Counted from the stretch's first letter, positions 1-15,798 are shown. The stretch is 64,000 bases of DNA from Candidatus Cloacimonadales bacterium (GCA_963665815.1 OY762463.1:3392001-3456000); one strand, 5' to 3'. The notes: generated by a model not told the origin, from the letters alone. Translations and numbers: made by a program.

Positions 1-914
1 GAATTATCGCTTAATTCTATTGATATGTCCCCATGCATGGATTCGATTGTTTTCCTGATATCACTTAGATAGATGGAATGTTCACTTGCAGGTTTATTAT
101 CTCTGAAAAGTGTGAAGTCATGGTCGAAAAAACGTTCCTTCTCTAACTCAGAAAGAATCAATCCTTTAACATCTATTTTTAACTTGTTAAGATTGTTTTC
201 TTTATTAAAGCTTAGTAATATCGTATTATCCTTGTCAACATGATATACAATTTCTATCAGCTTAAGTAATACAGTAATCAATGTATTGAAATTCAATTTC
301 ATATAGTTATCATCAGAATCAATACTTTGCATGAGTTTACAATCCGGATATGAGTTACCGATCATCATGATTACTTCATTAAAGAGACTCCCTGTTGAAA
401 AAACAGAGTATTTTTTGCTTGTTGTCTCTGATTTCTCGTGAATCTCACTGAGGTTTTTTATCAGCTTACGGCTTTCATTTACAATGATCTGAATAAATGT
501 CCTGTTATCATCAGTCTCATCAGTGTTTTTAAGCATTTTTCTGGCAAAACCGTTTATGGAAGTAAGGGAGGTTGTTGCTTCTACAAGAAAATCATCATAG
601 TTCCGGTATTTACCTTTTGTAATGACAGGATTAAATACCCAGAAATCCTTTTTCCCGTCTTTAATCTTTTTTAGATTGAATTCTTTTCCATTTGAAAGCA
701 TTACTCTTGATGCAGAATAAGTTTCATCAAGTACTGTGGGCAGGAATTCAGCATTTATCAGAGAACTGAAGACAGGGAAAAACATGGTCGAATCTATTTC
801 TGAAGGTAGTATATGTCGGATAACTGAATTAATGTACAGTATCTTTTGCTCTTCTGAACAAATTACTCCGGAAGATACTTCATCAAGCAGAAATCTTAAA
901 TCAGTTCTTTTCAT
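1..914 (-). CDS. Sensor histidine-kinase-like protein with degenerate HisKA/HATPase; runs off the window edge
   Basis: Partial manual translation from ATG at 914 (frame spot-checked, not every codon): MKRTDLRFLLDE...DFLVEATTSLTSINGFARKMLK...IVNESRKL...IRKTIESMHGDISIE. H-box-like helix and HATPase-like tail; starts 3 nt after the hisC stop. Confidence 0.6.
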   Translation of the reverse strand, partial: MKRTDLRFLLDEVSSGVICSEEQKILYINSVIRHILPSEIDSTMFFPVFSSLINAEFLPTVLDETYSASRVMLSNGKEFNLKKIKDGKKDFWVFNPVITKGKYRNYDDFLVEATTSLTSINGFARKMLKNTDETDDNRTFIQIIVNESRKLIKNLSEIHEKSETTSKKYSVFSTGSLFNEVIMMIGNSYPDCKLMQSIDSDDNYMKLNFNTLITVLLKLIEIVYHVDKDNTILLSFNKENNLNKLKIDVKGLILSELEKERFFDHDFTLFRDNKPASEHSIYLSDIRKTIESMHGDISIELSDN

Positions 915-917
915 TTA

Positions 918-1988
918 TTACTCCTTACTTAGGAAATCTTTGATAGTATTGATAAAGTACTTATTTTGCTCAGGAGATGCAATAGTAACTCTCAGATGGT
1001 TTCTTAGCAAAGAGTGAGCTCCTATTGCTCTCACAGCAATTTCATTTTCAGATAAGAACTCATGCAGCTCTGCAGATTTATCCCCAATTGTGAACGGTAT
1101 GAAATTAGTATTAGTTTTATGGCACTTCATACTTTCTAAACTACTCAATTCCATATACATTTTATCTCTTTCGGAAATTACCAGTTTGTTATGATCCAGA
1201 AACTCATCCTTATGTTCCAGAATACTGCAGACAAAAGTCTTAGTGAGATTACTCATGTGGAAAAAAGTCATTACCTTGCCGATTTCAGAAATATACTTCT
1301 TGTTAGACAGCATATAACCGAATCTCAATCCGGCTGAGGAAAACGCTTTGGAAAAGGATCGTATCAGAATCAAATTATCGTATATATCAAGCTTGTCGGC
1401 AAATGTTACACCGGAAAACTCGAAATATGTTTCATCTATCAGCACAGGTTTATCTGTTGATTCAATTATTTTAATGATCTTTTCTGTATTTAGCAGATTT
1501 CCGGTTGGATTATTAGGATTGCACAAAATGGCAAGTCTGCATTCCGGTTTGTTTATCTCAGCAATGTACTCATCCACATCAAAATCAAAGTCCTCGTTCA
1601 GATGCTGGAAATTTACGGGCATACCTATGGCAGTCGAGTATGTTTTATAATCAAAGTAGGATGGAGCAAGGGAGTAGGCATAATCTCCTTCACGCCCTCT
1701 AAGAGATGTAAACAGGTAGTACAGCATTTCATCTGCGCCATTACCATATACAAAGTTCTCTGAAGTCAGCCCGAAACCGATATAATCTGTAAGTTTCTGT
1801 TCCAGCTCAGCAGTTATGCCCTGAAAGTATCTGTTCAGGTGGACATTCTCCATTTTATTGAGAAATGTTGCTTTTATCAACTGATACGGATCAAGGCTGC
1901 TTTCATTCAGGCACATCATGTGCTTTTTAAGAGGGACATCTATAATTGCAGGTTTACGTTCTTCAAGATCTTTGCGGAATCTGTACAT
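918..1988 (-). CDS. hisC: Histidinol-phosphate aminotransferase family (PLP class I/II)
   Basis: Motifs LNES, GNGADE, CNPNNPTG, DETY, RSFSKAFSSAGLRFGY, LRVTI. Confidence 0.85.
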   Translation of the reverse strand: MYRFRKDLEERKPAIIDVPLKKHMMCLNESSLDPYQLIKATFLNKMENVHLNRYFQGITAELEQKLTDYIGFGLTSENFVYGNGADEMLYYLFTSLRGREGDYAYSLAPSYFDYKTYSTAIGMPVNFQHLNEDFDFDVDEYIAEINKPECRLAILCNPNNPTGNLLNTEKIIKIIESTDKPVLIDETYFEFSGVTFADKLDIYDNLILIRSFSKAFSSAGLRFGYMLSNKKYISEIGKVMTFFHMSNLTKTFVCSILEHKDEFLDHNKLVISERDKMYMELSSLESMKCHKTNTNFIPFTIGDKSAELHEFLSENEIAVRAIGAHSLLRNHLRVTIASPEQNKYFINTIKDFLSKE

Positions 1989-2293
1989 GGTCTAATACCT
2001 TTCTAAAGTTTTTCTTCATTGAGATGATAATAGTTTTTCTGTCAAGAACAGTATTTTTTCACATGACATCTCATATAGCCGTTTGTTAATATTCCAGAGA
2101 CGATTTCATGCATCCCCCGAAACCAATACAATGTATGTATAACTTATTATAAATAAAAGTATTGAAACAGTAAATCAGTGGAAAATATGAATCAATGTAA
2201 TAGCTTTGACTAAGTATGATTGTTTTGCATTGATGATAGCATTTTCTCTTTTTTACTGTATAATAAATTTAACCGTTAAGAAATCCTGAAGCC

Positions 2294-2504
2294 TTGGAAG
2301 GATTTTAGGAAAAATTTATGGTTCCAGTTTACTGGAAATACATTTTAAAAAGAGTGCTTTTCGATGAAATTTACAATTTCATCAACTTCTCCATTTTCTT
2401 TTGTTTAGTTTTCTTTGGCACCAAAGAAAATGAAGAGTGCATTTTTCTAAGAAATGTCTGCTAAAAATCCTTCCAATTTTCTTGAAATCAGATTTTCAAG
2501 AAAA
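2294..2504. repeat. Intergenic multi-hairpin (MITE/REP-like) element
   Basis: ttggaaggattttag (2294) is inverted to ctaaaaatccttccaa (2461); palindromes at 2322-2337, 2363-2383, 2409-2430 and 2477-2504. Confidence 0.5.
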
Positions 2505-2587
2505 AACGGGGGGATTCCAAGAGACGATTTACCTTGACAGATACTTATTCAATTATTTATAAATGGATAAATTTTTAAGGAGTGTAT

Positions 2588-3130
2588 ATGAAGAAAGTAA
2601 ACTATTTTATCATGATAGCTCTGTTAGTGCTTATAGCTGGATGTGCATCTTCCAATGGACACACTAAACATTTGCCCTCATTGGATACAGGTAAATTCAT
2701 CCCATCCGAATCTGATGACAGACTAACTCAATATGATTACAGCAGACTTAACGATCATGGCCTTATTGTGTTTACGTATGATTTTACAGGATTATCAGGA
2801 CATAAAAAAGAAGGGATTAGAGTCATTGAAGTTCCTATGAAAGGGAATAAGAATAGTGATGTTTTTAACAAGATATTCAGAGTAGATGGTGTTCAAACTC
2901 TTCACAGATTCAGAGGTGTTTCAACGGAAGTACAAATGATGGCAATCAGGGGAAAAGTAGTTTATGGCGGTTGTCTGAAAATTGATGTGAGTGATATTGA
3001 TAACGTTGATGTCGTGCAAGTATTGGACAAAAGAGATGAACTGAATAAAACACTTTCTGAGAAGAACTGTAAGCTAAATATTGATGAAATTGAAGTTAAG
3101 CTGATGAAAGCCAGAATATTCGCCAGTTGA
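2588..3130 (+). CDS. Hypothetical lipoprotein
   Basis: AAGGAG RBS; MKK, hydrophobic stretch, lipobox LIAGC. Confidence 0.7.
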   Translation: MKKVNYFIMIALLVLIAGCASSNGHTKHLPSLDTGKFIPSESDDRLTQYDYSRLNDHGLIVFTYDFTGLSGHKKEGIRVIEVPMKGNKNSDVFNKIFRVDGVQTLHRFRGVSTEVQMMAIRGKVVYGGCLKIDVSDIDNVDVVQVLDKRDELNKTLSEKNCKLNIDEIEVKLMKARIFAS

Positions 3131-3152
3131 TACCTCTTAGTTTGAATGCATA

Positions 3153-3219
3153 AGATTTTCTGATGTCACTCAAAAATGAAATGAATGGAGAACTGATATT
3201 ACGCAATATTGCAGGTCAG
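3153..3219 (+). repeat. 67-bp direct-repeat copy of the helicase gene 5' end (other copy 4384-4450)
   Basis: agattttctgatgtcactcaaaaa...gcaatattgcaggtcag; 4 mismatches by manual alignment. Confidence 0.9.
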
Positions 3220-3327
3220 AGAGCTGTTCTCGAAAATGTCTCCGATTAAGTTGAACTTGATAATTAATTTACTGTTATCTATAATTATTAAAGAAAATAC
3301 TGACTATCAGTAATTTAGGAGACATAT

Positions 3328-4296
3328 ATGACCAAGTTTCATGTTGTGCTTTTCTTGTCTGCTTTTTTGATCACAGTCTTACCAGCAACACTTTCACCGG
3401 AATTTTTGAAAGCAGAAAAAGCAATTGCCGAAGATGACTATGAATTAGCTATTGAATTATATAGTTCAATTATTGAGTCTGATCCGGAGAATGCAGAAGC
3501 ATATTTCCTGAGGGGAGTCGCGAATTTAGAAGAAACAGACGATGATTTAGCTCTGGATGATCTCAATAAAGCTCAAGAACTTGGTTACAAGAATATCTAC
3601 TTGTATTATTATCGAGGTTTATCATACGAAAGTCTGATTGAATATGATAAAGCTATATCTGATCTTACAGTTTTTCTGGATGATTCATCCAGTAAACCAG
3701 ATTCTATTTTGATTAAGGCATATAAATCTCGAGGATGGTGTCGAAATGATTTGAAAGATTATTCCGGCTCTATTGAAGATTGCACAAAAGCAATCGAACT
3801 TAATCCAATGGATGTTAATGCAAACTTCCAGAGAGCAACCGTATTGTTTAAGGACAAGCAGTATGCAAAATCAATAAATGAATTCATACGACTTGCAAAG
3901 TTGTTCCCGAAGAAAAATAAAATTGCCAGAAAACGCATTATTTTCATAAAACTTGAAACCGGTGATTATAGCGGGGTGGTTAGAGACTGTACACAATTGC
4001 TGAATGAAGGATATCGAAAATGTTCATTGTATCAATTACGTGCAGAAGCCTACTTAGGACTTACGGAATATGAGAAAGCCCTTGCTGATATAAAAACAGC
4101 TCTCAATGATTTCGAAAAGCATGAGAAAATTCTTGATTACAGGAAAATTGCACAGATTAAAGCAAGAGCGATACTGGGATTAGGGTATGTTAAAGAAGCT
4201 GAAAGTTATATTAACAAGGCATTACAGCAAGATCCGGATAATACTGAGTTTCTTAAAATCAAACAGGAAATACTTGAAGCTTCAAAGAAAAAGTAG
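3328..4296 (+). CDS. Secreted tetratricopeptide-repeat protein
   Basis: Signal-like N-terminus; repeated TPR motifs (AEAYFLRG, AYKSRG...AIELNP, KALQQDPDN). Confidence 0.85.
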   Translation: MTKFHVVLFLSAFLITVLPATLSPEFLKAEKAIAEDDYELAIELYSSIIESDPENAEAYFLRGVANLEETDDDLALDDLNKAQELGYKNIYLYYYRGLSYESLIEYDKAISDLTVFLDDSSSKPDSILIKAYKSRGWCRNDLKDYSGSIEDCTKAIELNPMDVNANFQRATVLFKDKQYAKSINEFIRLAKLFPKKNKIARKRIIFIKLETGDYSGVVRDCTQLLNEGYRKCSLYQLRAEAYLGLTEYEKALADIKTALNDFEKHEKILDYRKIAQIKARAILGLGYVKEAESYINKALQQDPDNTEFLKIKQEILEASKKK

Positions 4297-4360: not shown

Positions 4361-6877
4361 ATGGATTATAATAATAAACTGTCAGATTTTCTGATGTCAC
4401 TCAAAAACGAAATGAGCGGAGAACTGATATTCCGCAATATTGCAGGTCAGGATGCTGTCTTTGATGCAATCCCCCAACGGGTCGATCTGTCAATCCGGAG
4501 TTTTCTTGCAGCCAATGGTATAAGCAAACTGTTCAAGCACCAGTCAGATGCTCTAAATGCTGTTTTTCGCAGAGAAAACGTAGTTATCACTACAGGTGTG
4601 TCCAGCGGGAAATCGCTCTGTTATCAGGTTCCTGTCGTTCAGTCGATTTTGGATGATCACGAGTCATCTTCACTTTTTCTCTACCCTACAAAAGCATTGT
4701 CTCGTGATCAGCTTAAACAGATGAACAATCTTTTCCCGAATGACAACAACAGGATGTTCAAGGCTTTTGTATATGATGGTGATACTCCGGCTGATAAAAG
4801 AAAGCACATTCGGAATCATGCAAATATCGTAGTGACTAATCCTGACATGCTGCACATGAGTATATTACCACATCATACAACCTGGGAGAAATTCTTTTCC
4901 GGTCTGCGCTATGTCGTCATTGATGAAATCCATACCTACAGAGGTGTTTTCGGGTCTCATTTCATTAATGTTATGAGACGCCTCCACAGAATTATGAAGT
5001 TTTACGGAGCATCACCGCAATATATTATGACATCTGCCACAATTGCCAATGCTCGGGAAACTGCAGAGAAAATATCAGGACAGAAAGTTACTCTGATTGA
5101 TCAGGATTACTCCGCAAAAGGCAGCAGATACTTCATTTATTATAATCCACCCATAGTAAACGAAGAGCTGGGCATTCGTAAAAGCTCCCTGCTCGAAGCT
5201 GAGGAAATAGGCTATAAGCTGATTAGAAATGATCTTCAGTCTATCATATTTGCCCAGACAAGAAAGAGTGTTGAATTGATAGTCAACTATCTGCTTCGTC
5301 ATGAGGATGTCTCAGAAAAAGATGTGCGTGGCTACCGTTCAGGCTATCTGCCGGGATTCCGTCGAGAGATTGAGCAGGAATTACAGCAGGGAAATGCTAA
5401 ATGTGTCGTTGCAACCAATGCTCTTGAGCTGGGAATTGATATCGGATCTCTGGATGTGTCCGTTATAAGCGGTTACCCCGGAACTATAGCCTCTCTATGG
5501 CAGCAGGCAGGCAGAGCAGGCAGATCCGGTAAAGAGTCTGTGAACATATATTTGACAAGTGCCAGTCCGTTGGATCAGTATCTGTATAGTCATCCGGAAT
5601 ACATTTTCGACAGAGAGTCCGAGAAAGCCATAACGAATCCTGATCACCTCCTTATACTGTTCAATCACCTGCAATGTGCTGTGTTTGAACTGCCTTTCAA
5701 GAATGACGAGTATTTCGGAAATCTTTCACCTGAAGAGATAATTGACATGTGGGAAGTACTGAAAGAAGAACGCAAAGTTTTCGAGGACAGAGATAGCTAT
5801 TACTGGACTGCCGGAGGGTATCCTCCTGAACTGATCAGTCTGCGCAATATCGATTCAGGATTGATAAAACTCATCAATGATGCTCCTCAGAGAACAATCA
5901 TAGGATATACTGACCGACACAGTTCATACTGGCTACTTCATCCTAAAGCTATATATATACATGACGGTACATCTTACATCGTGAAAGATCTGAATCTGGA
6001 AGAAAAATACGCTCTGCTTCAGGAAGCGGAAATGGATTATTTTACTCAGGCACAGATGAAAACAGAGTTTGATATAGAATCAACAGATAACGCCAAAGAA
6101 TATAAAGGATTTACAATTGAAAAAGGTGAATTGATTGTTCGCAGCAGAGTTATAGGATTTCAGGCGAAAAAGTGGTACACTCACGAAATTGTGGGACAGG
6201 AAGAACTGGAAATGCCTGAGCATGCTCTGGATACATATGGATGCTGGATAAAACTGTCTGCGGATTTTGTGGAATCCCTGAGACAAAGCGACTCCTGGAG
6301 TAACAACCGGAATAACTATGGGGCTGACTGGAATTTGATAAAGGAAGCAGTCAGACGCAGAGACCATTACAGTTGTCGTAATTGTGGAAAACTTGAGGAC
6401 GGAGCAAACCATGATGTACACCACATAAAACCGTTCCGGTTCTTTGATTCTGCCAGAGAAGCGAATGCTATGGAAAACCTGATTACCCTGTGTAAAAGCT
6501 GTCATCATCAGGCAGAGAGTCAGGTTAGAGTTGTTTCCGGTCTCGATGGAGTCAGACATCTGCTCCAGAATATGAGTCCGCTTAAGCTTATGTGCGATAA
6601 TACAGATATAAGAGTGTTTGCAGAAAGTGCAAGTTCACTTAATGCACAGCTCCCGGCTATTGTCTTTTACGATGCAATTTCGGGAGGGATTGGACTGAGT
6701 GAAGAAGTTTATAAAGAGTTTTTCAGTATTCTGAGAAAGTCACTTGAAGTCCTGAAAAGCTGTCAATGCGACTCTGGTTGTCCATCCTGTATAGGACCTT
6801 CCGCAAGTAAGGACTCTAAGAAATACTCAGCAATAATTATTAGCAAACTGCTGAAGGTACACAATGAAAAAGCTTAA
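4361..6877 (+). CDS. DEAD/DEAH-box helicase with DUF1998 (MrfA/YprA-like) and an inserted HNH domain
   Basis: TGVSSGKS, PTKALS, DEIH, SATIAN, ATNALELGIDIG, QQAGRAGR; C-terminal YDAISGGIG...CQCDSGCPSC; HNH-like RDHYSCRNCG..HHIKP..NLITLCKSCH. Confidence 0.9.
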   Translation: MDYNNKLSDFLMSLKNEMSGELIFRNIAGQDAVFDAIPQRVDLSIRSFLAANGISKLFKHQSDALNAVFRRENVVITTGVSSGKSLCYQVPVVQSILDDHESSSLFLYPTKALSRDQLKQMNNLFPNDNNRMFKAFVYDGDTPADKRKHIRNHANIVVTNPDMLHMSILPHHTTWEKFFSGLRYVVIDEIHTYRGVFGSHFINVMRRLHRIMKFYGASPQYIMTSATIANARETAEKISGQKVTLIDQDYSAKGSRYFIYYNPPIVNEELGIRKSSLLEAEEIGYKLIRNDLQSIIFAQTRKSVELIVNYLLRHEDVSEKDVRGYRSGYLPGFRREIEQELQQGNAKCVVATNALELGIDIGSLDVSVISGYPGTIASLWQQAGRAGRSGKESVNIYLTSASPLDQYLYSHPEYIFDRESEKAITNPDHLLILFNHLQCAVFELPFKNDEYFGNLSPEEIIDMWEVLKEERKVFEDRDSYYWTAGGYPPELISLRNIDSGLIKLINDAPQRTIIGYTDRHSSYWLLHPKAIYIHDGTSYIVKDLNLEEKYALLQEAEMDYFTQAQMKTEFDIESTDNAKEYKGFTIEKGELIVRSRVIGFQAKKWYTHEIVGQEELEMPEHALDTYGCWIKLSADFVESLRQSDSWSNNRNNYGADWNLIKEAVRRRDHYSCRNCGKLEDGANHDVHHIKPFRFFDSAREANAMENLITLCKSCHHQAESQVRVVSGLDGVRHLLQNMSPLKLMCDNTDIRVFAESASSLNAQLPAIVFYDAISGGIGLSEEVYKEFFSILRKSLEVLKSCQCDSGCPSCIGPSASKDSKKYSAIIISKLLKVHNEKA

Positions 6878-8054
6878 AGCAAAACTGAAGTCACTTGGTG
6901 CAGAGTTAAAAAAAGAGGATTCTGCTGTTGAAGAAGTTTTAGAGACTGAATCCGAGTCTTATATTGAAACTCCTTATGGAAAAGTACGCTGCAAAAAGAC
7001 AATTCATGATATGAATCTACAATTTTCGAGTGATATTTCGCAAGGGATAAGAAGTGTAAGTAAATATTGCAGAGTTCCACAAGCACTGGCATCAAATCCA
7101 TTCAATTTTGTGTTCATTGATCTGGAGACAACAGGACTTTCAGGTGGAGCAGGGACTATACCATTTCTGACAGGAGCAGGAGTCCTTAAAAATGGCAAAT
7201 TTGAGCTGTATCAGTATTTTCTTGAGTCACCATCTCAGGAGAAAGCAGGTCTGCATCTTGTAAAAGATATGATAAAAGATAAGTCGATTGTTGTCTCATT
7301 CAATGGAAAGAGCTTTGATATCCCGCTTCTGAAGAGTCGTTTTGTACTCCATTTCAGAGAACATCCATTTGACGAAAAGTATAATCTTGATCTTCTGCAT
7401 ATTTTCCGAAGGCTCTATAAAAACCGGTTCGAGAATTGTTCTCTGCAATACCTTGAATACCGCATACTGAAGCTATTCAGAACCTCATCTGACATAGAAG
7501 GTTATCTCATACCGGAGATGTATACACAGTATCTGCATGACAGAGATGAGGACTTTGTAGAAAGTGTGCTGTATCATAATGAAGTGGATATTACCTCCAT
7601 GGTAAGTCTACTTGATTTTCTGGTGAAATACCTGTCTGAGCCGTGCTGTGAAGATTATGAGGATTTAACCGATCCATTAGCTGTATGCAGATTCTTTGAG
7701 TTCATTGAAGATACTGAATGTGCAGAGAATATGTATTCAAGCTATAAAGAGAATCCGTTATGTACTAATGATGAGAAATTTCAGTGGCACTATTCGATTA
7801 TGCTGAAAAAGTCTAAACGAGTTAATGAGGCTGTGGAAGTCTGGGAAAAACTGACGGAATCCAGCATAGATGCGTGTTGCGAACTGGCAAAGCACTATGA
7901 ACACCGGATGAAGAACTTCGATAAGGCTATTCAGTATACATATTCGGCATTTGATCTGGCATTGAGTCAGGGGAAATCTGTCACAGTCCTGAAGGCAATC
8001 CAGACCAGAATGCAAAGACTTGAGCAAAAATTGAAAAGGGTGAGAAACGGATAA
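6864..8054 (+). CDS. RNase H-like DEDD exonuclease with C-terminal TPRs (MrfB/YprB-like)
   Basis: FIDLETTGLSGGAGT, SFNGKSFDIP, DLLH, HNEVDI, LAKHYEH; overlaps the helicase stop. Confidence 0.85.
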   Translation: MKKLKAKLKSLGAELKKEDSAVEEVLETESESYIETPYGKVRCKKTIHDMNLQFSSDISQGIRSVSKYCRVPQALASNPFNFVFIDLETTGLSGGAGTIPFLTGAGVLKNGKFELYQYFLESPSQEKAGLHLVKDMIKDKSIVVSFNGKSFDIPLLKSRFVLHFREHPFDEKYNLDLLHIFRRLYKNRFENCSLQYLEYRILKLFRTSSDIEGYLIPEMYTQYLHDRDEDFVESVLYHNEVDITSMVSLLDFLVKYLSEPCCEDYEDLTDPLAVCRFFEFIEDTECAENMYSSYKENPLCTNDEKFQWHYSIMLKKSKRVNEAVEVWEKLTESSIDACCELAKHYEHRMKNFDKAIQYTYSAFDLALSQGKSVTVLKAIQTRMQRLEQKLKRVRNG

Positions 8055-8351
8055 AATCCATATTAACCTTTGTAATACGAATAACAGGGATTCCTGTTAC
8101 CTTAGAAGAGATCAGCGAAATCATCCTCGTTTAAGGTTAGTTTAAAATGTACTTATTTTTTATCTCAGAGCACAATGACTGAGCCTATACTAAATCGACA
8201 ATGTTGATATAATCCTGAATAAGAATCAAACATATGTATGCCTTTAAGTGTCAAGAACCAGATCAAATCCATATCTTTTATCAGCAATATTTCCGTAAAT
8301 AAAACTTGCAGTTCAGTTAATATTTTGATCATATTGGTTTATGAGGCAAAA

Positions 8352-9716
8352 ATGAATAGAAATTATAAATATCACGAGGCAACAATAAGTATCTGCCCGG
8401 AGTGCAATAAAAGAGTCCCTGCAAAGATAATTTTCAGAGATAACAAAGTATATCTGAAGAAACACTGCGAGGAACACGGGATAACAGAAGAACTCTTCGA
8501 AGAGGATATTGAGTATTATCTGAATAAAAGGAAGTTCGATAAACCCGGTACTGTCTCAGAGATTCAGACTGAGACAAATAGAGGCTGTCCCTGGGATTGC
8601 GGACTGTGCCCTGAGCACGATCAGCATACCTGCATTGGTTTGGTGGAGATAACAGAAAACTGTGATCTGAATTGTCCGGTTTGTTATGCTAAGAGTGATT
8701 CAGGTAGTTTCATGTCATTGGATAGAATCAGTAAAATGATGGATTTCTTTGTGCAGAGTGAAGGTGGAGAAGCTGAGATTCTGCAGATCAGCGGGGGAGA
8801 ACCTACAACCCATCCGGATATTATCAAAATCATAGAGCTGGCTCGCAAGAAGAATATACGCTATGTGATGCTTAATACAAACGGACTGCGCATTGCTGAT
8901 GATCTTGAGTTTGTCTCAGATCTCAGCAAATTCGAAGGAGGATTTGAAGTGTATCTCCAGTTTGATGGTTTTGATCCTGAAATATACCGAACTTTACGTG
9001 GCAGAGATATTCTGGAACAAAAACTGAAAGCTGTGAAAGTGCTGACTATGTTCAAAATTCCCGTAACGCTTGTGGTAACTGTTCAGAAAGGGTTAAATGA
9101 TCACCAACTTGGTAAAATCATTGAGTTCGGTATGGAAACCGAAGGAGTGCGTGGAGTTAATCTTCAGCCTGTAGCATATTTTGGCAGATTTAACAAAGAG
9201 GCAACATCTGACAGGATTACTCTGTCCGGAGTGATTCACAGTATTGAGAACCAGCTTCCGGATGTATTTCAAAAGGGTGATATAGTGCCGCTTCCCTGCA
9301 ATGTTGAACGGGTAGGTGTGACATATCTCAGCAAAGTAAAAGGTAAGTTTGTACCTGTTACCAGAAACGTGAAGATAGAAGACTATCTACCGCTTATAGA
9401 TAACACCTTTGCATTTGATGCGGACAGAATCATAAAGAAGAGGGAAAAAGAATCTGTGACTTCAATTGAAGGAACCTGCAGTTGTATGAACTTCCTGAAA
9501 GATATGAAGTCAATTATTCCTGTAAGTTTTGCATTCAAGTCAAAGAAAGAAAAGCTCAAGTATATTAATAACAATACATTCCGAATAAGTGTGACCTCTT
9601 TTGTAGATAAATACAATTTTGATCTGAAATCTATGCAGAAAGAATGCGTTCATATATTAACGGAAGATTTAAGAAGAATTCCATTTTCTGCGTATAACAT
9701 GTTTTACAGGGATTAA
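8352..9716 (+). CDS. Radical SAM protein of the Tes/GDGT-MAS (MJ0619-like) family
   Basis: N-terminal CPEC...CEEHG, GCPWDCGLCPEH, SAM motif CDLNCPVC, SGGEPT, YLQFDG, C-terminal ECVH...IPFSAYN; start moved to ATG 8352 after a GAGG RBS. Confidence 0.8.
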   Translation: MNRNYKYHEATISICPECNKRVPAKIIFRDNKVYLKKHCEEHGITEELFEEDIEYYLNKRKFDKPGTVSEIQTETNRGCPWDCGLCPEHDQHTCIGLVEITENCDLNCPVCYAKSDSGSFMSLDRISKMMDFFVQSEGGEAEILQISGGEPTTHPDIIKIIELARKKNIRYVMLNTNGLRIADDLEFVSDLSKFEGGFEVYLQFDGFDPEIYRTLRGRDILEQKLKAVKVLTMFKIPVTLVVTVQKGLNDHQLGKIIEFGMETEGVRGVNLQPVAYFGRFNKEATSDRITLSGVIHSIENQLPDVFQKGDIVPLPCNVERVGVTYLSKVKGKFVPVTRNVKIEDYLPLIDNTFAFDADRIIKKREKESVTSIEGTCSCMNFLKDMKSIIPVSFAFKSKKEKLKYINNNTFRISVTSFVDKYNFDLKSMQKECVHILTEDLRRIPFSAYNMFYRD

Positions 9717-9718
9717 GA

Positions 9719-10300
9719 ATGTTTTTCAGAATAGCAAATTTATCTGTTGGATTGAGCGTTATGGCACTCTCAATATCCATAATCTATAACTTTATGAACA
9801 GCAGAGAACAGAAGGTGAATAAGGAAAAGAAGAGCGTTGTCGAAACAGGATCGATGTCCGCTTTTGCAGTTGCCATGTATTTTATTCTGATGTTCGGCAT
9901 AGGCAGATACAAGATAGAGAACCCTCTGCTTAACGTATCCATTGCTGTGGGCATGCTGTTTGTGCATGCCGGTTGTGTTGCAAATATTGTTGGCAGATTG
10001 AATCTTGGCAAAAACTGGGGTAACCACATAAGGATATATGATGATCATTCTTTTTCCAGAAAGGGAATGTACCGAATTGTCAGGCACCCGTTATATTCAT
10101 CGATAATCCTGATGTTCTTTGGTGCAGGCTTGATCTACTCTAACTATCTGTGTTTTTTAGCTACCACAGTAATTTTTATCCCTGCTATGTACTACAGGGC
10201 TAAACAGGAAGAAAATTTATTGAAAGAGAAGTTTTCTGAATACAGGCTGTATCAGAAAGAAGTTGGAATGCTGTTCCCAAAGGTAAGATTATGGAAATAA
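9719..10300 (+). CDS. Isoprenylcysteine carboxyl methyltransferase/PEMT family membrane protein
   Basis: LGKNW...GMYRIVRHPLYS...RAKQEE..L..KF.EY..Y. Confidence 0.85.
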   Translation: MFFRIANLSVGLSVMALSISIIYNFMNSREQKVNKEKKSVVETGSMSAFAVAMYFILMFGIGRYKIENPLLNVSIAVGMLFVHAGCVANIVGRLNLGKNWGNHIRIYDDHSFSRKGMYRIVRHPLYSSIILMFFGAGLIYSNYLCFLATTVIFIPAMYYRAKQEENLLKEKFSEYRLYQKEVGMLFPKVRLWK

Positions 10301-10713
10301 ACAAGTATGCTTTAAAATTCTGCAAATTCGGTGTAGCTATAATGCTCTGGTTAGCTTTTATCCTGAAGGTGAAACTGTTAATAAGTGTCGTGTTCGTTAT
10401 TTTTGTGCTTTCAGCTTTGCTGAAGATTAGCAGAGCTCCTATGATTCTGCTGTATAATTACACTGTTGGTTTACTTATAAAATCACCGAAAGTTATAGTC
10501 AATGCTGAGGCAATGAGATTTGTTCATACTCTTGCATCATGTTTCAGCGGGATATGTCTTCTACTTGTCAATTTGAACTTGCGTTTTGCCTGGAGTGTTG
10601 TGTTGATTTTTGCCATCATGAAGACTGTCAGTTCACTGGGATTTTGTCCGGGAGAAAAGATTTACTCCTGTGTAAAAGGTGGTTGCTGCTCTGTAAGGAA
10701 ATCGGATGATTGA
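10291..10713 (+). CDS. DUF4395-like membrane protein with Cys-rich C-terminus
   Basis: Four hydrophobic segments; AMRF..TLA; LGFCPGEKIY...CVKGGCC. Confidence 0.6.
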   Translation: MEINKYALKFCKFGVAIMLWLAFILKVKLLISVVFVIFVLSALLKISRAPMILLYNYTVGLLIKSPKVIVNAEAMRFVHTLASCFSGICLLLVNLNLRFAWSVVLIFAIMKTVSSLGFCPGEKIYSCVKGGCCSVRKSDD

Positions 10714-11479
10714 CAGCCACAACCATCCTGAAAACTGGGGAATAAAACCTTATCTGCTTGAAATCGGTAAATTCAGGCTGGGCTCTTATGAGGTGTTTGT
10801 TTCACTGGGCATAATTGTCGGATTTATTGTATACAAGCATCTTTCTGCACAAGACAAGAAGATGAGCGATAACTCTTTTATTGTGCTGATTGCAGCGTTT
10901 ATTGGAGGAGTACTGGGAGCAAAACTACCCATCTGGATTATGCATTTCCGGGAGATAGTTCAGGCATTACCGGATATAAGACCAATTCTGGCAGGCAGGA
11001 CTATTACCGGAGGATTGGTTGGCGGAACTCTCGCAGTAATTTTTACAAAACGCAAACTGGGGATTAAGGAGAAGAAAGGCAATTTCTTTGCTCCGGCTAT
11101 AGCAATCGGTGTGGCAATAGGGAGAGTGGGCTGTCTTTTACGAGGCTGCTGCTATGGTCATGAGACATGTCTTCCTTGGGGAATTGAGCTTGGTGATGGT
11201 GTTATGCGTCATCCAACCCAGATTTATGAGATTATCTTTATGCTGATAATGTTTGCAGTACTGATGAAGCTTCGTAAGAAAGCAAAACCCGGATTTCTTT
11301 TCTATCTGCTTATGACCTCATATTTCTCATTCAGATTTATTGAGGAATATCTGCGGGAGAGTGTCTACTATTACGGTTTCACATTATTCCAGTATATATC
11401 TGTCGGAGCATTGCTGTTTATTAATGTAAAGTATATTCTTGAAAAGAAGAGGAGAGAGTGTGTCAAAGAAAATGAGTGA
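10706..11479 (+). CDS. Prolipoprotein diacylglyceryl transferase (Lgt) family paralogue
   Basis: GGLVGG, GRVGCLLRGCCYG (variant of GRxGNFxNxE), PWG, RHPTQIYE, RFIEEYLR. Confidence 0.8.
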   Translation: MIDSHNHPENWGIKPYLLEIGKFRLGSYEVFVSLGIIVGFIVYKHLSAQDKKMSDNSFIVLIAAFIGGVLGAKLPIWIMHFREIVQALPDIRPILAGRTITGGLVGGTLAVIFTKRKLGIKEKKGNFFAPAIAIGVAIGRVGCLLRGCCYGHETCLPWGIELGDGVMRHPTQIYEIIFMLIMFAVLMKLRKKAKPGFLFYLLMTSYFSFRFIEEYLRESVYYYGFTLFQYISVGALLFINVKYILEKKRRECVKENE

Positions 11480-11711
11480 AGGCAAAGAGTTCAAGATTGG
11501 GTCATTCATAGGAATTATGGCACTATTTATCATGATGATGGTTTCAATATCAGGTTTTCTGATATGGTTAATATTATATGATATCGTTCTGATATTTGTC
11601 GGACTTCTGATCTATAAATCCGGAAAGATGAAGATGTTTTTTTCATATTGCCTGTTCGTCATACCGGGATTTATTTTCCACGGATCATGCTTCGGCGGAG
11701 TGAATTTTTAG
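11472..11711 (+). CDS. Small membrane protein, paralogue 1 (C-terminal GSC)
   Basis: ATG overlaps the Lgt-like stop; hydrophobic; KEFKIGSFIG...FHGSCFGGVNF. Confidence 0.7.
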   Translation: MSEGKEFKIGSFIGIMALFIMMMVSISGFLIWLILYDIVLIFVGLLIYKSGKMKMFFSYCLFVIPGFIFHGSCFGGVNF

Positions 11712-11761
11712 TGAATTGATTTTACAATAACTGATTATAAAATGTATAAGGAGAAAATATT

Positions 11762-12046
11762 ATGAACTCAAAAAGAAAACAGTTTTTTAAGGGTCTACTT
11801 ATTGGATTGCTGTTATTGATAACTTTTTTTGTTATATTCATAATGTTTGGTTTTCCAAATGGCTTTGATGATGGTTCCGCTTCCTATCCACTTATAATTA
11901 TTATGGGCTTAGTTTATGCATCATTATGTGTATTCTTCTGGCTTCGAGGAAAAAATCGTGCGCTGTTTTATGGATTTATTTCAGCAGTTGCTGTGTTTGC
12001 TTTGATTTTTGGAGCTTGTACTTTCACCTGGATATACACATTGTAG
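11762..12046 (+). CDS. Small 3-TM membrane protein, paralogue 2 (C-terminal GAC)
   Basis: AAGGAG RBS; KQFFKGLLIG...LIFGACTFTWIYTL. Confidence 0.75.
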   Translation: MNSKRKQFFKGLLIGLLLLITFFVIFIMFGFPNGFDDGSASYPLIIIMGLVYASLCVFFWLRGKNRALFYGFISAVAVFALIFGACTFTWIYTL

Positions 12047-12070
12047 GATTAAGAACCCAAAGGAGTTTAT

Positions 12071-12394
12071 ATGGATAAACAACAGGATTTTTCTTTTAAA
12101 GAAAACAAAACCGACAGAAAATTCAAAGATGTCATTATTGGTGCATTAATCGGAGTTGTGCTGATTGCATTAATATTTATCATTGCAATACCGCAAACAT
12201 ACTCATCAGTAGTATCAAATGTTTTTTTTGCATACACAATTTATGCTTTAGCAATATTAGTAGTTCTGGGTATTGTTTATATTAGTATTAGAAAGAAGCA
12301 GTATTTTTTGCTTTTAGGTTTGATACTAAGTCCATTACTAGCTCTGATTCTGGTAGGTGCATGTTTTGTTGCTGTCATGGGTAGTGCGGGATAA
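12071..12394 (+). CDS. Small 3-TM membrane protein, paralogue 3 (C-terminal GAC)
   Basis: AAGGAG RBS; KDVIIGALIG...LVGACFVAVMGSAG. Confidence 0.75.
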   Translation: MDKQQDFSFKENKTDRKFKDVIIGALIGVVLIALIFIIAIPQTYSSVVSNVFFAYTIYALAILVVLGIVYISIRKKQYFLLLGLILSPLLALILVGACFVAVMGSAG

Positions 12395-14649: not shown

Positions 14650-15798
14650 GTGAATTATCCACAATATGAGAATAACAGTATCATTAATCTTGTGAGTTCT
14701 CTGGTAAAGTCAATGGGCGGAAGCCTGCACACAGGTGAACTGAAACATTTTGATGTTGAAACCCTGAGGAAGAAGAAGAATATTGTATTCATTATTCTGG
14801 ATGGAATGGGATACAATCAGCTTAAAGCTCTTGAAAAAGCTGAGTTTCTGAATAGCAATATAAAGCAAAGAATCACTTCTGTTTTCCCGACAACTACTGC
14901 AGCAGCAATTACAAGTTTTGTCAGTGGTATTGCACCTCTGGAACATGCCGTAACCGGCTGGTACATGTACATGAGAGAACTTGGAGCAGCTTCTCTTGCC
15001 TTACCATTCAGTCCAAGATATGTGTTCGAAGAATACAATATTCCGGGAGATGTAGTATACAATTTCAACAGTGTTTTCCCACAGATTGAAAGAACTTCTT
15101 ATTATATCAGTCCCGAAAAAATTATTAATTCGGTATTTTCATCAATTGCCTGTGCTGATTCTGTGAAGATGGGATATAATGATCTGGATGAGTTTTTCGA
15201 TAATATTCATAAAGCGGTTGATATATCTGATGAGGATAAATTTGTTTATGCTTACTGGTCATATTATGATAAACTATGCCACCAGACAGGAACCGAATCA
15301 GAAGAATCTACTTCTCATCTGCTTGATCTCAACAATAGAATAGAAAATCTGGTTAATAGTTTTGAAGGTAAAGATTACCAGATAATTGTTACTGCTGATC
15401 ATGGGCATATTAATGTTGAGCAGAAAAAAAAGATTTTTCTTTCTGACCATCCTGAGCTGCATAAGTGCCTTATCCTGCCTTTGTGCGGGGAACCAAGAGC
15501 TCCTTACTTCTATGTGAAATCTGATTGTGTTGAAAAATTCAAAAGCTATGTTGATGAAAATTTTAGTGATCGAATTGATTTGATATCCAGAAAATCTGCA
15601 ATAGAATCAGGTATTTTCGGAATTGCCGAAAGGAATCCTAAATTTGATGACAGGGTTGGCGACTATATAGGATTATTCAAGGATAATTCAATTTTATGTG
15701 ATGCTGTTTATGGTGAGCAGATACCTGACTTTATAGGCTATCATGGGGGATTATCCGAAAATGAAATGTTTGTTCCGTTAATCACAATAAAAAATTAA
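14650..15798 (+). CDS. Alkaline phosphatase superfamily (nucleotide pyrophosphatase/phosphodiesterase-like)
   Basis: ILDGMG, SVFPTTT, YDKLCH, TADHGH, GYHGGLS..EM.VPL. Confidence 0.85.
   Translation: MNYPQYENNSIINLVSSLVKSMGGSLHTGELKHFDVETLRKKKNIVFIILDGMGYNQLKALEKAEFLNSNIKQRITSVFPTTTAAAITSFVSGIAPLEHAVTGWYMYMRELGAASLALPFSPRYVFEEYNIPGDVVYNFNSVFPQIERTSYYISPEKIINSVFSSIACADSVKMGYNDLDEFFDNIHKAVDISDEDKFVYAYWSYYDKLCHQTGTESEESTSHLLDLNNRIENLVNSFEGKDYQIIVTADHGHINVEQKKKIFLSDHPELHKCLILPLCGEPRAPYFYVKSDCVEKFKSYVDENFSDRIDLISRKSAIESGIFGIAERNPKFDDRVGDYIGLFKDNSILCDAVYGEQIPDFIGYHGGLSENEMFVPLITIKN

Follow-up and report, generated by a model that had tools for sequence, protein, structure and literature searches.

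An Lgt-family paralogue linked to a Tes-like radical SAM enzyme and Cys-tailed membrane proteins suggests a dedicated protein lipidation cassette

What might a bacterium make with a gene cluster that sets an enzyme resembling Tes and GDGT-MAS beside an Lgt-family protein and a run of small membrane proteins that end a few residues after a cysteine? Positions 8352-12394 of a 64,000-nucleotide (nt) stretch of Candidatus Cloacimonadales bacterium DNA (GCA_963665815.1 OY762463.1:3392001-3456000; the whole stretch is called the window here), part of a 3.96-Mb genome on a single contig, raise this question. Open reading frame (ORF) listing confirmed what an initial annotation had described, namely seven genes, all on the + strand, with a 2-nt gap between the radical S-adenosylmethionine (SAM) gene and an ICMT-like gene followed by three overlaps: 10 nt between ICMT-like and DUF4395, 8 nt between DUF4395 and Lgt-like, and a third where the first small-protein gene, sm1, overlaps the Lgt-like end. 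The family assignments proposed there hold as well (PF04055 and PF23545 for the radical SAM protein, PF04140, PF14340 and PF01790 for the next three). Its broader interpretation, a lipidation pathway, survived in part: gene linkage, the Lgt paralogue and the association with small proteins stood, whereas a C-terminal Cys, a core role for the ICMT-like and DUF4395 genes and CAAX-like methylation did not. We favor, with slightly better than even confidence, a reading of the comparative data in which the locus is a horizontally spread cassette for dedicated Cys lipidation of small proteins, with radical tailoring of the lipid.

Linkage of the radical SAM, Lgt-like and small-protein genes

A radical SAM alignment, searched against a single genome from each species, returned 597 relatives, of which the best 80 were kept; 78 loci were counted. 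Gene content was determined by phmmer with the window proteins against all ORFs of each locus and then by unbiased clustering of neighbors of at least 90 amino acids (aa). The radical SAM gene was recovered in 78 of 78 loci by phmmer and in 77 by clustering, and the Lgt-like gene in 73, with a contig end cutting four of the five loci that lack it. Small Cys proteins accompany the enzymes across phyla, so the co-occurrence on which the initial annotation had staked its proposal was indeed found for these genes. It was not found for the ICMT-like and DUF4395 genes, which that annotation had counted as parts of a common system: they occur in 14 and 13 of the 78 loci, respectively, all in one clade. 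Beyond these four families, no further same-strand family of at least 90 aa is conserved in the 78 loci. Judged by gene content, the core of the cassette is the Lgt-like paralogue, the radical SAM enzyme and the small membrane proteins, and the ICMT-like and DUF4395 genes are clade-specific accessories.

The loci divide into two clades. The first, at 49-69% identity, spans Woesearchaeota and other archaeal metagenome-assembled genomes (MAGs), Clostridia, Bacteroidales, Elusimicrobia, Actinobacteria and Verrucomicrobia, and keeps the order radical SAM-ICMT-DUF4395-Lgt in 12 of its 14 ICMT-bearing loci (L011 is cut off after ICMT, and L024 has its Lgt-like gene upstream). The second, at 40-43% identity, comprises Flavobacteriia, Chitinophagia, Paenibacillus and others, has its Lgt-like gene immediately upstream of that for the radical SAM enzyme, and carries neither ICMT nor DUF4395. 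In all, three gene orders retain the triad: radical SAM-ICMT-DUF4395-Lgt-small, Lgt-radical SAM-small, and three small genes followed by radical SAM and Lgt. Carriers range from culturable Flavobacteriia, Chitinophaga and Paenibacillus to genomes of 0.6 Mb. A 671-aa natural fusion (P0121) joins an Lgt-like part bearing the GCCYG motif, through an Arg-rich linker, to a Zn-ribbon/radical SAM part.

Within the phylum of the window, the radical SAM gene is present in 3 of 232 genomes and a close Lgt-like copy (more than 500 bits) in the window genome and a congener only, two of the three radical SAM carriers. In the congener (G124, same genus; L092/L095/L103), the same cassette encodes an Lgt-like protein 96% identical to that of the window. 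It sits on the opposite strand, about 48 kb away from the gene homologous to the window's upstream neighbor, so the cassette shows no synteny even between members of one genus. The third carrier (G006, L093) has a more distant version at 784-3517, in which three small ORFs (58-68 aa, each with GGC and a tail at its end) precede the radical SAM gene and an Lgt-like gene comes last. That these genes are functionally unlinked neighbors by chance is extremely improbable, given a triad that archaeal and many bacterial lineages share in three different gene orders, the natural fusion, and genes that are present or absent together within one phylum. Taken together, these comparisons support the radical SAM, Lgt-like and small-protein genes as one functional unit.

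The Lgt-like gene (10706-11479, +) encodes a 257-aa protein that scores 115.9 bits against PF01790 (cut-off 24.9) and 88.5 bits against the Lgt equivalog model TIGR00544, under its cut-off of 118.9. A canonical Lgt scoring 247.7 bits against PF01790 is encoded elsewhere in the genome, at 1.21 Mb, and a single LspA at 2.40 Mb. Because of this separate canonical gene, the higher-scoring canonical Lgt also present in four of four other bacterial carrier genomes tested, and the phylum distribution of the radical SAM and Lgt-like genes, the sequence comparison indicates that the Lgt-like gene is a true paralogue rather than the housekeeping enzyme, the identity that the initial annotation had named as its own possible undoing. 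In a 0.6-Mb Woesearchaeota MAG (L018/G001), the sole Lgt-family gene is the cassette PF01790 copy (143 bits); mis-binning is possible there. The Lgt-like protein, like the small proteins, has no NCBIfam model of its own.

Aligned with E. coli Lgt (5azb; alignment A2), the paralogue retains Y26, R143, G154, Y235, R239 and E243, with H103 replaced by Thr and N146, E151 and L152 by Cys. E. coli Lgt has an absolute requirement for six residues, Y26, H103, R143, N146, G154 and R239, of which R143 and R239 position the phosphate of phosphatidylglycerol (PMC13251419); four of the six are kept here as Y28, R140, G151 and R210, and two are lost (H103, now T101; N146, now C143). The Lgt signature motif, which lies in the periplasmic head and transmembrane helix 4 (PMC13251419), appears in the variant form GRxGCxxxGCCYG, as the initial annotation had noted, at residues 139-151 (11120-11158, +; GRVGCLLRGCCYG), identified against the E. 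coli alignment. By our own reading of the motif rows, the N146 position is Cys in 69 of 74 locus copies and Asn in four Ktedonobacteria copies, one further copy being partial. The GCC triplet is restricted to the 49-69%-identity clade plus L081, and Bacteroidota/Paenibacillus-type copies also carry Y26H (alignment A2). In the four Ktedonobacteria loci (L026, L027, L028 and L032), the neighboring Lgt-like gene reads GRLGN at this site.

Variants of this kind are already on record: M. smegmatis MSMEG_5408 (Y26H, N146C) shares N146C with the cassette enzyme and Y26H with its Bacteroidota/Paenibacillus-type copies, N146C second copies have been treated as distant Lgt proteins, and a Leptospira Lgt with N146C partly complements E. 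coli (PMC13251419). The word "radical" occurs nowhere in that paper. Compared with the Lgt-LspA-Lnt maturation pathway, the cassette has a PF01790 enzyme with the same R143, G154, Y235, R239 and E243, encoded beside proteins with a K/R loop, an uncharged helix, small residues and a Cys. It differs in that its enzyme is a second copy (N146C, H103T) always paired with a radical SAM enzyme, in that a small multi-helix membrane protein bears the motif near its C-terminus, with almost nothing after the Cys, and in that no dedicated LspA or Lnt belongs to the cassette.

Small membrane proteins with a lipobox-like end

Three small membrane proteins follow the Lgt-like gene on the + strand. The first, sm1 (11439-11711), is a 90-aa protein if read from TTG 11439, and its start is probably GTG 11460 (83 aa), with AGGAG at 11450 just upstream; its Cys codon lies at 11688-11690 and its tail is FGGVNF. 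The second, sm2 (11762-12046), has 94 aa, a Cys codon at 12017-12019, the tail TFTWIYTL and an upstream AGGAG ribosome-binding site, and the third, sm3 (12071-12394), has 107 aa, Cys98 encoded at 12362-12364, the tail FVAVMGSAG and an upstream AAGGAG site. Pfam and NCBIfam hold no family for these ORFs (90, 94 and 107 aa), and the Protein Atlas returned just DUF4395 clusters and clusters of unnamed "hypothetical protein." The Cys had been put at the very C-terminus by the initial annotation; it stands instead 6, 8 and 9 residues before the end (HGSC-FGGVNF, FGAC-TFTWIYTL and VGAC-FVAVMGSAG). We considered whether the three could be chance reading frames, an explanation that we rejected in view of the ribosome-binding sites, the matches to a family hidden Markov model (HMM) and 590 relatives.

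That HMM, run on the window genome, matches sm1 (E 3e-15), sm2 (1e-15) and sm3 (1e-21) and nothing else. A criterion of helix, Cys and tail passes 111 of 36,305 small ORFs in the whole window genome, including all three from the cassette, a pattern beyond chance. Across both clades, small + strand ORFs after the last enzyme gene finish with an uncharged helix, then [GSA]-x-C and a short tail; with the criterion fixed, at least one passing small ORF is found in 61 of 78 loci, against 52 of 8,962 background ORFs, and choosing the first downstream ORF by position alone gives helix, Cys and tail in 61 of the 73 loci with enough sequence. (A stricter first motif heuristic, which recovered 41 of 78 loci, was superseded by these two approaches.) Copy number per locus ranges from 0 to 4, a variability also seen with precursor genes. 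In the Ktedonobacteria loci, the ORF after the radical SAM gene has 306-332 aa and no Cys tail (L026, L028) or 66 aa and fails the helix criterion (L027).

M1 and C98 (sm3 numbering) are the sole invariant positions in the alignment of these proteins (A3). The first-downstream-ORF set has the consensus G at -4, L/F at -3, G/S/A at -2 and I/A/V/T at -1, then the Cys and G/S. Over 85 small proteins, the uncharged stretch ahead of the Cys has a median of 18 residues, and K plus R average 2.99 in the 10 residues before the helix versus 0.38 in the tail. A profile search of 1.84 billion representatives returned 590 cluster representatives at E<=0.001; among the best 150 matches, 149 have the helix, Cys and tail, a count biased upward by a search profile that includes the Cys column, and of these 149, 147 have G at -2 and 136 have A/G/S at -1. 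Tails are 2-22 residues long family-wide (median 7-9); one of them, in CFLN, has three residues after the Cys. In Chitinophagaceae loci (e.g., L035, L042, L051, L073 and L083), tails finish in a recurrent N-F-H or N-x-H, which hints that the tail may be more than a mere spacer.

The last helix thus presents the n-region, h-region and Cys layout of a signal peptide. The canonical lipoprotein arrangement, an N-terminal signal peptide followed by a mature domain, is absent from the small proteins, whose lipobox-like motif is C-terminal, 4-22 residues ahead of the stop codon. Because a K/R-rich loop precedes the helix, the positive-inside rule predicts the Cys at the outer membrane face. The periplasmic Lgt signature motif is on the same side. 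Complex prediction from the Lgt-like alignment A2 and the small-protein alignment A3 gave ipSAE values of 0.01 and 0.08, where the mark is 0.32; we count these neither for nor against an interaction.

The same features invite comparison with a lipopeptide of the ribosomally synthesized and post-translationally modified kind, in which each small protein would be a membrane "leader" plus a Cys-initial core, signal peptidase II would free a diacylglyceryl lipopeptide of 4-23 residues, and the radical SAM enzyme would modify its peptide or lipid. Tandem small genes of variable number, a hypervariable tail behind a fixed motif, lineage-specific tail endings such as the N-F-H of Chitinophagaceae and an LspA in the genome would all suit such a product, and -1 = A/G/S in 136 of 149 proteins of the window's clade matches the canonical lipobox [LVI][ASTVI][GAS]C (PMC12462473). 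In the other clade, however, -1 is often I, V or T, poor for LspA by that motif, and the one archaeal MAG examined for Lgt-family genes holds the cassette copy alone. The radical SAM protein also points elsewhere: it resembles a lipid enzyme end to end, and SPASM-type peptide maturase models match it weakly (at most 62.5 bits, with the best stretches within the radical SAM core), far under its Tes and TrsS scores. We regard a lipopeptide as unlikely.

Radical SAM enzyme, accessory proteins and proposed chemistry

The radical SAM gene (8352-9716, +) encodes a 454-aa Tes/GDGT-MAS-like protein with an N-terminal Zn-ribbon of the HMPTM type and a CxxxCxxC motif (C104, C108 and C111) that is invariant in the radical SAM alignment. 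It scores 79.7 bits against PF04055 and 64.6 bits against PF23545 in Pfam. Homologues of 449-470 aa, including some of 454 aa, begin their alignment at the Met at 8352; the open frame reaches 38 codons further upstream (8238-8351), and the longer form, of 492 aa, is found in one public record (P0124). Alignment with GDGT-MAS (7tol) has E 1e-69 and pairs query residues 8-453 with chain residues 22-497, that is, the whole length, including the Zn-ribbon, radical SAM core and C-terminal region. It differs from Tes/GDGT-MAS in scoring under the Tes cut-off (NF045702; 314.6 bits against 450), in its linkage to genes for an Lgt-like enzyme and for small proteins with a Cys tail, and in occurring in bacteria and tiny archaeal MAGs that lack any protein over that cut-off.

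Relatives of the enzyme behave in the same way. Eight that we tested score 281-351 bits against the Tes model, and none of the eight reaches the Tes or TrsS cut-offs; in four archaeal MAGs tested, the cassette radical SAM protein is the sole Tes-family match, at 277-323 bits, again below cut-off. The best-scoring NCBIfam model for the window protein is the radical SAM (seleno)protein TrsS (NF045646; 361.4 bits), named by Haft and Tolstoy 2025 (as cited in PMC13188914), from which it differs in falling under the cut-off of 490 and in having no in-frame TGA in its gene. A 2022 preprint by Haft contains no mention of this family.

Tes and GDGT-MAS form Csp3-Csp3 bonds between lipid tails (PMC13459092), and an alternative built on lipids alone follows from this resemblance: the radical SAM enzyme would make membrane-spanning or macrocyclic lipids, the Lgt-like protein would bind or hand over phosphatidylglycerol, and the small proteins would be unlipidated subunits or scaffolds. 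The full-length similarity to GDGT-MAS is consistent with it, transferase activity could be lost with the replacement of N146 and H103, and bacterial Tes homologues are read in the literature as synthases of brGDGTs (branched glycerol dialkyl glycerol tetraethers) or other membrane-spanning lipids (PMC8941075, PMC13459092). We still consider it a rather doubtful account of a small protein whose one invariant residue besides the start Met is a Cys in a signal-peptide-like, lipobox-like setting. A copy number of 0 to 4 would be unusual for a subunit, and the cassette is present in 0.6-Mb genomes. To our knowledge, moreover, Lgt-family enzymes have no activity besides Cys diacylglyceryl transfer.

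Between the two core enzyme genes of the window lie the two accessories of its clade. The 193-aa ICMT-like protein (9719-10300, +) is a membrane methyltransferase of the ICMT/PEMT family, with 42.2 bits against PF04140 (cut-off 24), and its RHPLY.S motif is conserved across 15 sequences. It scores 79.8 bits against NF040696 (protein-S-isoprenylcysteine O-methyltransferase; cut-off 160), also matches the LmtA and MddA models of NCBIfam, and has Ma-ICMT (4a2n, E 5e-15) as its closest solved relative. From its K/R-rich loops, the positive-inside rule predicts that its RHPLY/SAM-binding region is cytoplasmic. The 140-aa DUF4395 protein (10291-10713, +) scores 46.3 bits against PF14340 (cut-off 24.5) and is predicted to have four membrane helices with K/R-rich ends. 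At least 90% of 14 sequences share C11, H79, C119, C127, C132 and C133. The prediction puts all of these Cys and His residues on the cytoplasmic side of the membrane, where they may form a metal or redox site. DUF4395 received two passing mentions in the literature searched.

An ICMT relative beside Cys-tailed proteins recalls eukaryotic CAAX processing, in which a prenyltransferase, Rce1/Ste24 and ICMT act in turn. Here the analogous scheme would begin with Cys lipidation; a protease would then cut off the tail, and the ICMT-like enzyme would methyl-esterify the Cys thereby left at the C-terminus. In both NCBIfam and the PDB, the methyltransferase matches protein-S-isoprenylcysteine O-methyltransferases best, the tails are short and uncharged (three residues in CFLN), and the proposed product would likewise be a Cys thioether lipid near the C-terminus. 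The cassette, however, has an Lgt-like enzyme and no prenyltransferase, and its Cys, 4-23 residues from the end, does not keep to the four residues of CAAX proteins. As the initial annotation had noted, no protease is encoded in the operon: none of the seven proteins matches a protease family, and no extra conserved same-strand neighbor, hence no conserved protease, accompanies the 78 loci. The ICMT-like gene is itself missing from 64 of these loci, and members of its family also methylate lipids and small thiols, as the LmtA and MddA matches recall. CAAX-like methylation is topologically awkward because the Cys is predicted to face outward and the SAM-binding region of the methyltransferase to face the cytoplasm. 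We judge this scheme, which the initial annotation had advanced, to be very unlikely.

A dedicated lipidation of the small proteins is the reading that we prefer, and we infer each of its chemical steps from linkage, paralogue status, motif and fusion, which are observed. The cassette would consist of an N146C Lgt-family transferase, a radical SAM enzyme of the Tes/GDGT-MAS fold and one to four small membrane proteins as its dedicated substrates. In each of these, the last helix would act like a lipoprotein signal peptide, with a K/R-rich loop, about 18 uncharged residues, G-x-C and a short uncharged tail. At the outer membrane face, the Lgt-like enzyme would transfer diacylglyceryl from phosphatidylglycerol to the thiol of the invariant Cys. 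The radical SAM enzyme, attached by docking or fusion to the Lgt-like enzyme's cytoplasmic end, would perform Tes-type radical chemistry at the lipid tail ends before or after transfer, forming C-C bonds that either close a macrocycle or link up with a lipid in the opposite leaflet. In the window's clade, the ICMT-like methyltransferase, at the cytoplasmic face, may cap a lipid head group, and the Cys-rich DUF4395 protein, at the same face, may assist the radical SAM enzyme as its metal or redox partner.

Several observations weigh against dedicated Cys lipidation. N146 and H103, essential in E. coli, are Cys and Thr in the Lgt-like protein, so the chemistry or lipid donor of the paralogue may differ from those of Lgt, and the M. 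smegmatis N146C/Y26H copy is "presumed low activity" (PMC13251419). With a cytoplasmic radical SAM enzyme and a Cys predicted to face outward, the two enzymes cannot act on one and the same atom. The Ktedonobacteria loci retain Asn146 and have no Cys-tailed ORF, and may represent a different subtype. More generally, the small ORF is absent at its expected place in 12 of 73 loci; by our own position checks, at least two of these misses (L053 and L084) have a passing small ORF nearby, and it can also lie upstream, as in L093. The fusion P0121 is one protein on one 5-kb contig, and the 149-of-150 count carries the upward bias given above.

In one specific form of the tailoring step, the Tes-like enzyme would join one tail of the Cys-borne diacylglyceryl to a lipid tail of the inner leaflet, or close both tails into a ring, giving a protein-bound bolalipid. 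On the comparative evidence, we put this forward as an outcome that we doubt more than we expect. If true, the small protein would be covalently stapled across the bilayer, much of the set now taken to mark brGDGT or glycerol dialkyl glycerol tetraether (GDGT) synthesis, the "bacterial and DPANN Tes homologues," would be protein-lipidation enzymes, and bona fide Lgt-family enzymes would exist in archaea.

Surroundings and significance of the cassette

Directly upstream of the cassette, window positions 4361-8054 (+) contain a gene pair that we take to be akin to MrfA/MrfB. One gene encodes a DEAD/Helicase_C protein of 838 aa that has an MrfA Zn-binding domain and an HNH endonuclease domain (residues 672-719), and it overlaps by 14 nt the gene for a 396-aa protein of the RNase_H_2 superfamily. 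Downstream, at 14650-15798 (+), a 382-aa protein has phosphodiesterase and PglZ-domain matches. A promoter and terminator scan yielded sites no more frequent than in shuffled sequence. Three DNA sequencing runs, all from one study, hold the stretch, and no RNA sequencing run is listed as holding it.

The cassette is a real, conserved, widespread and apparently undescribed system: no description of it was found in the literature searched, the scope of which excludes Haft and Tolstoy 2025 and supplements. A 2026 review (PMC13459092) makes no mention of Lgt or lipoproteins. Lipid geochemists take bacterial and DPANN Tes homologues as pointers to organisms that produce tetraethers; Zeng et al. 2022 (PMC8941075) listed 456 bacterial homologues, guessed to be brGDGT makers, and called the DPANN homologues unexpected. 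The cassette offers these proteins a testable role, and likewise the "second Lgt" copies with N146C, which published work on Lgt regards as leftovers of low activity. Two recent papers state that Lgt has no archaeal homologues (PMC12462473, PMC13251419), against which stand the Lgt-family genes in archaeal MAGs reported here, mis-binning being possible for the 0.6-Mb Woesearchaeota MAG. Culturable carriers among the Flavobacteriia, Chitinophaga and Paenibacillus make the cassette experimentally accessible. If our reading is correct, it would add a new kind of protein lipidation, one that combines a lipobox at the C-terminus with a transferase dedicated to it and radical tailoring of the attached lipid.

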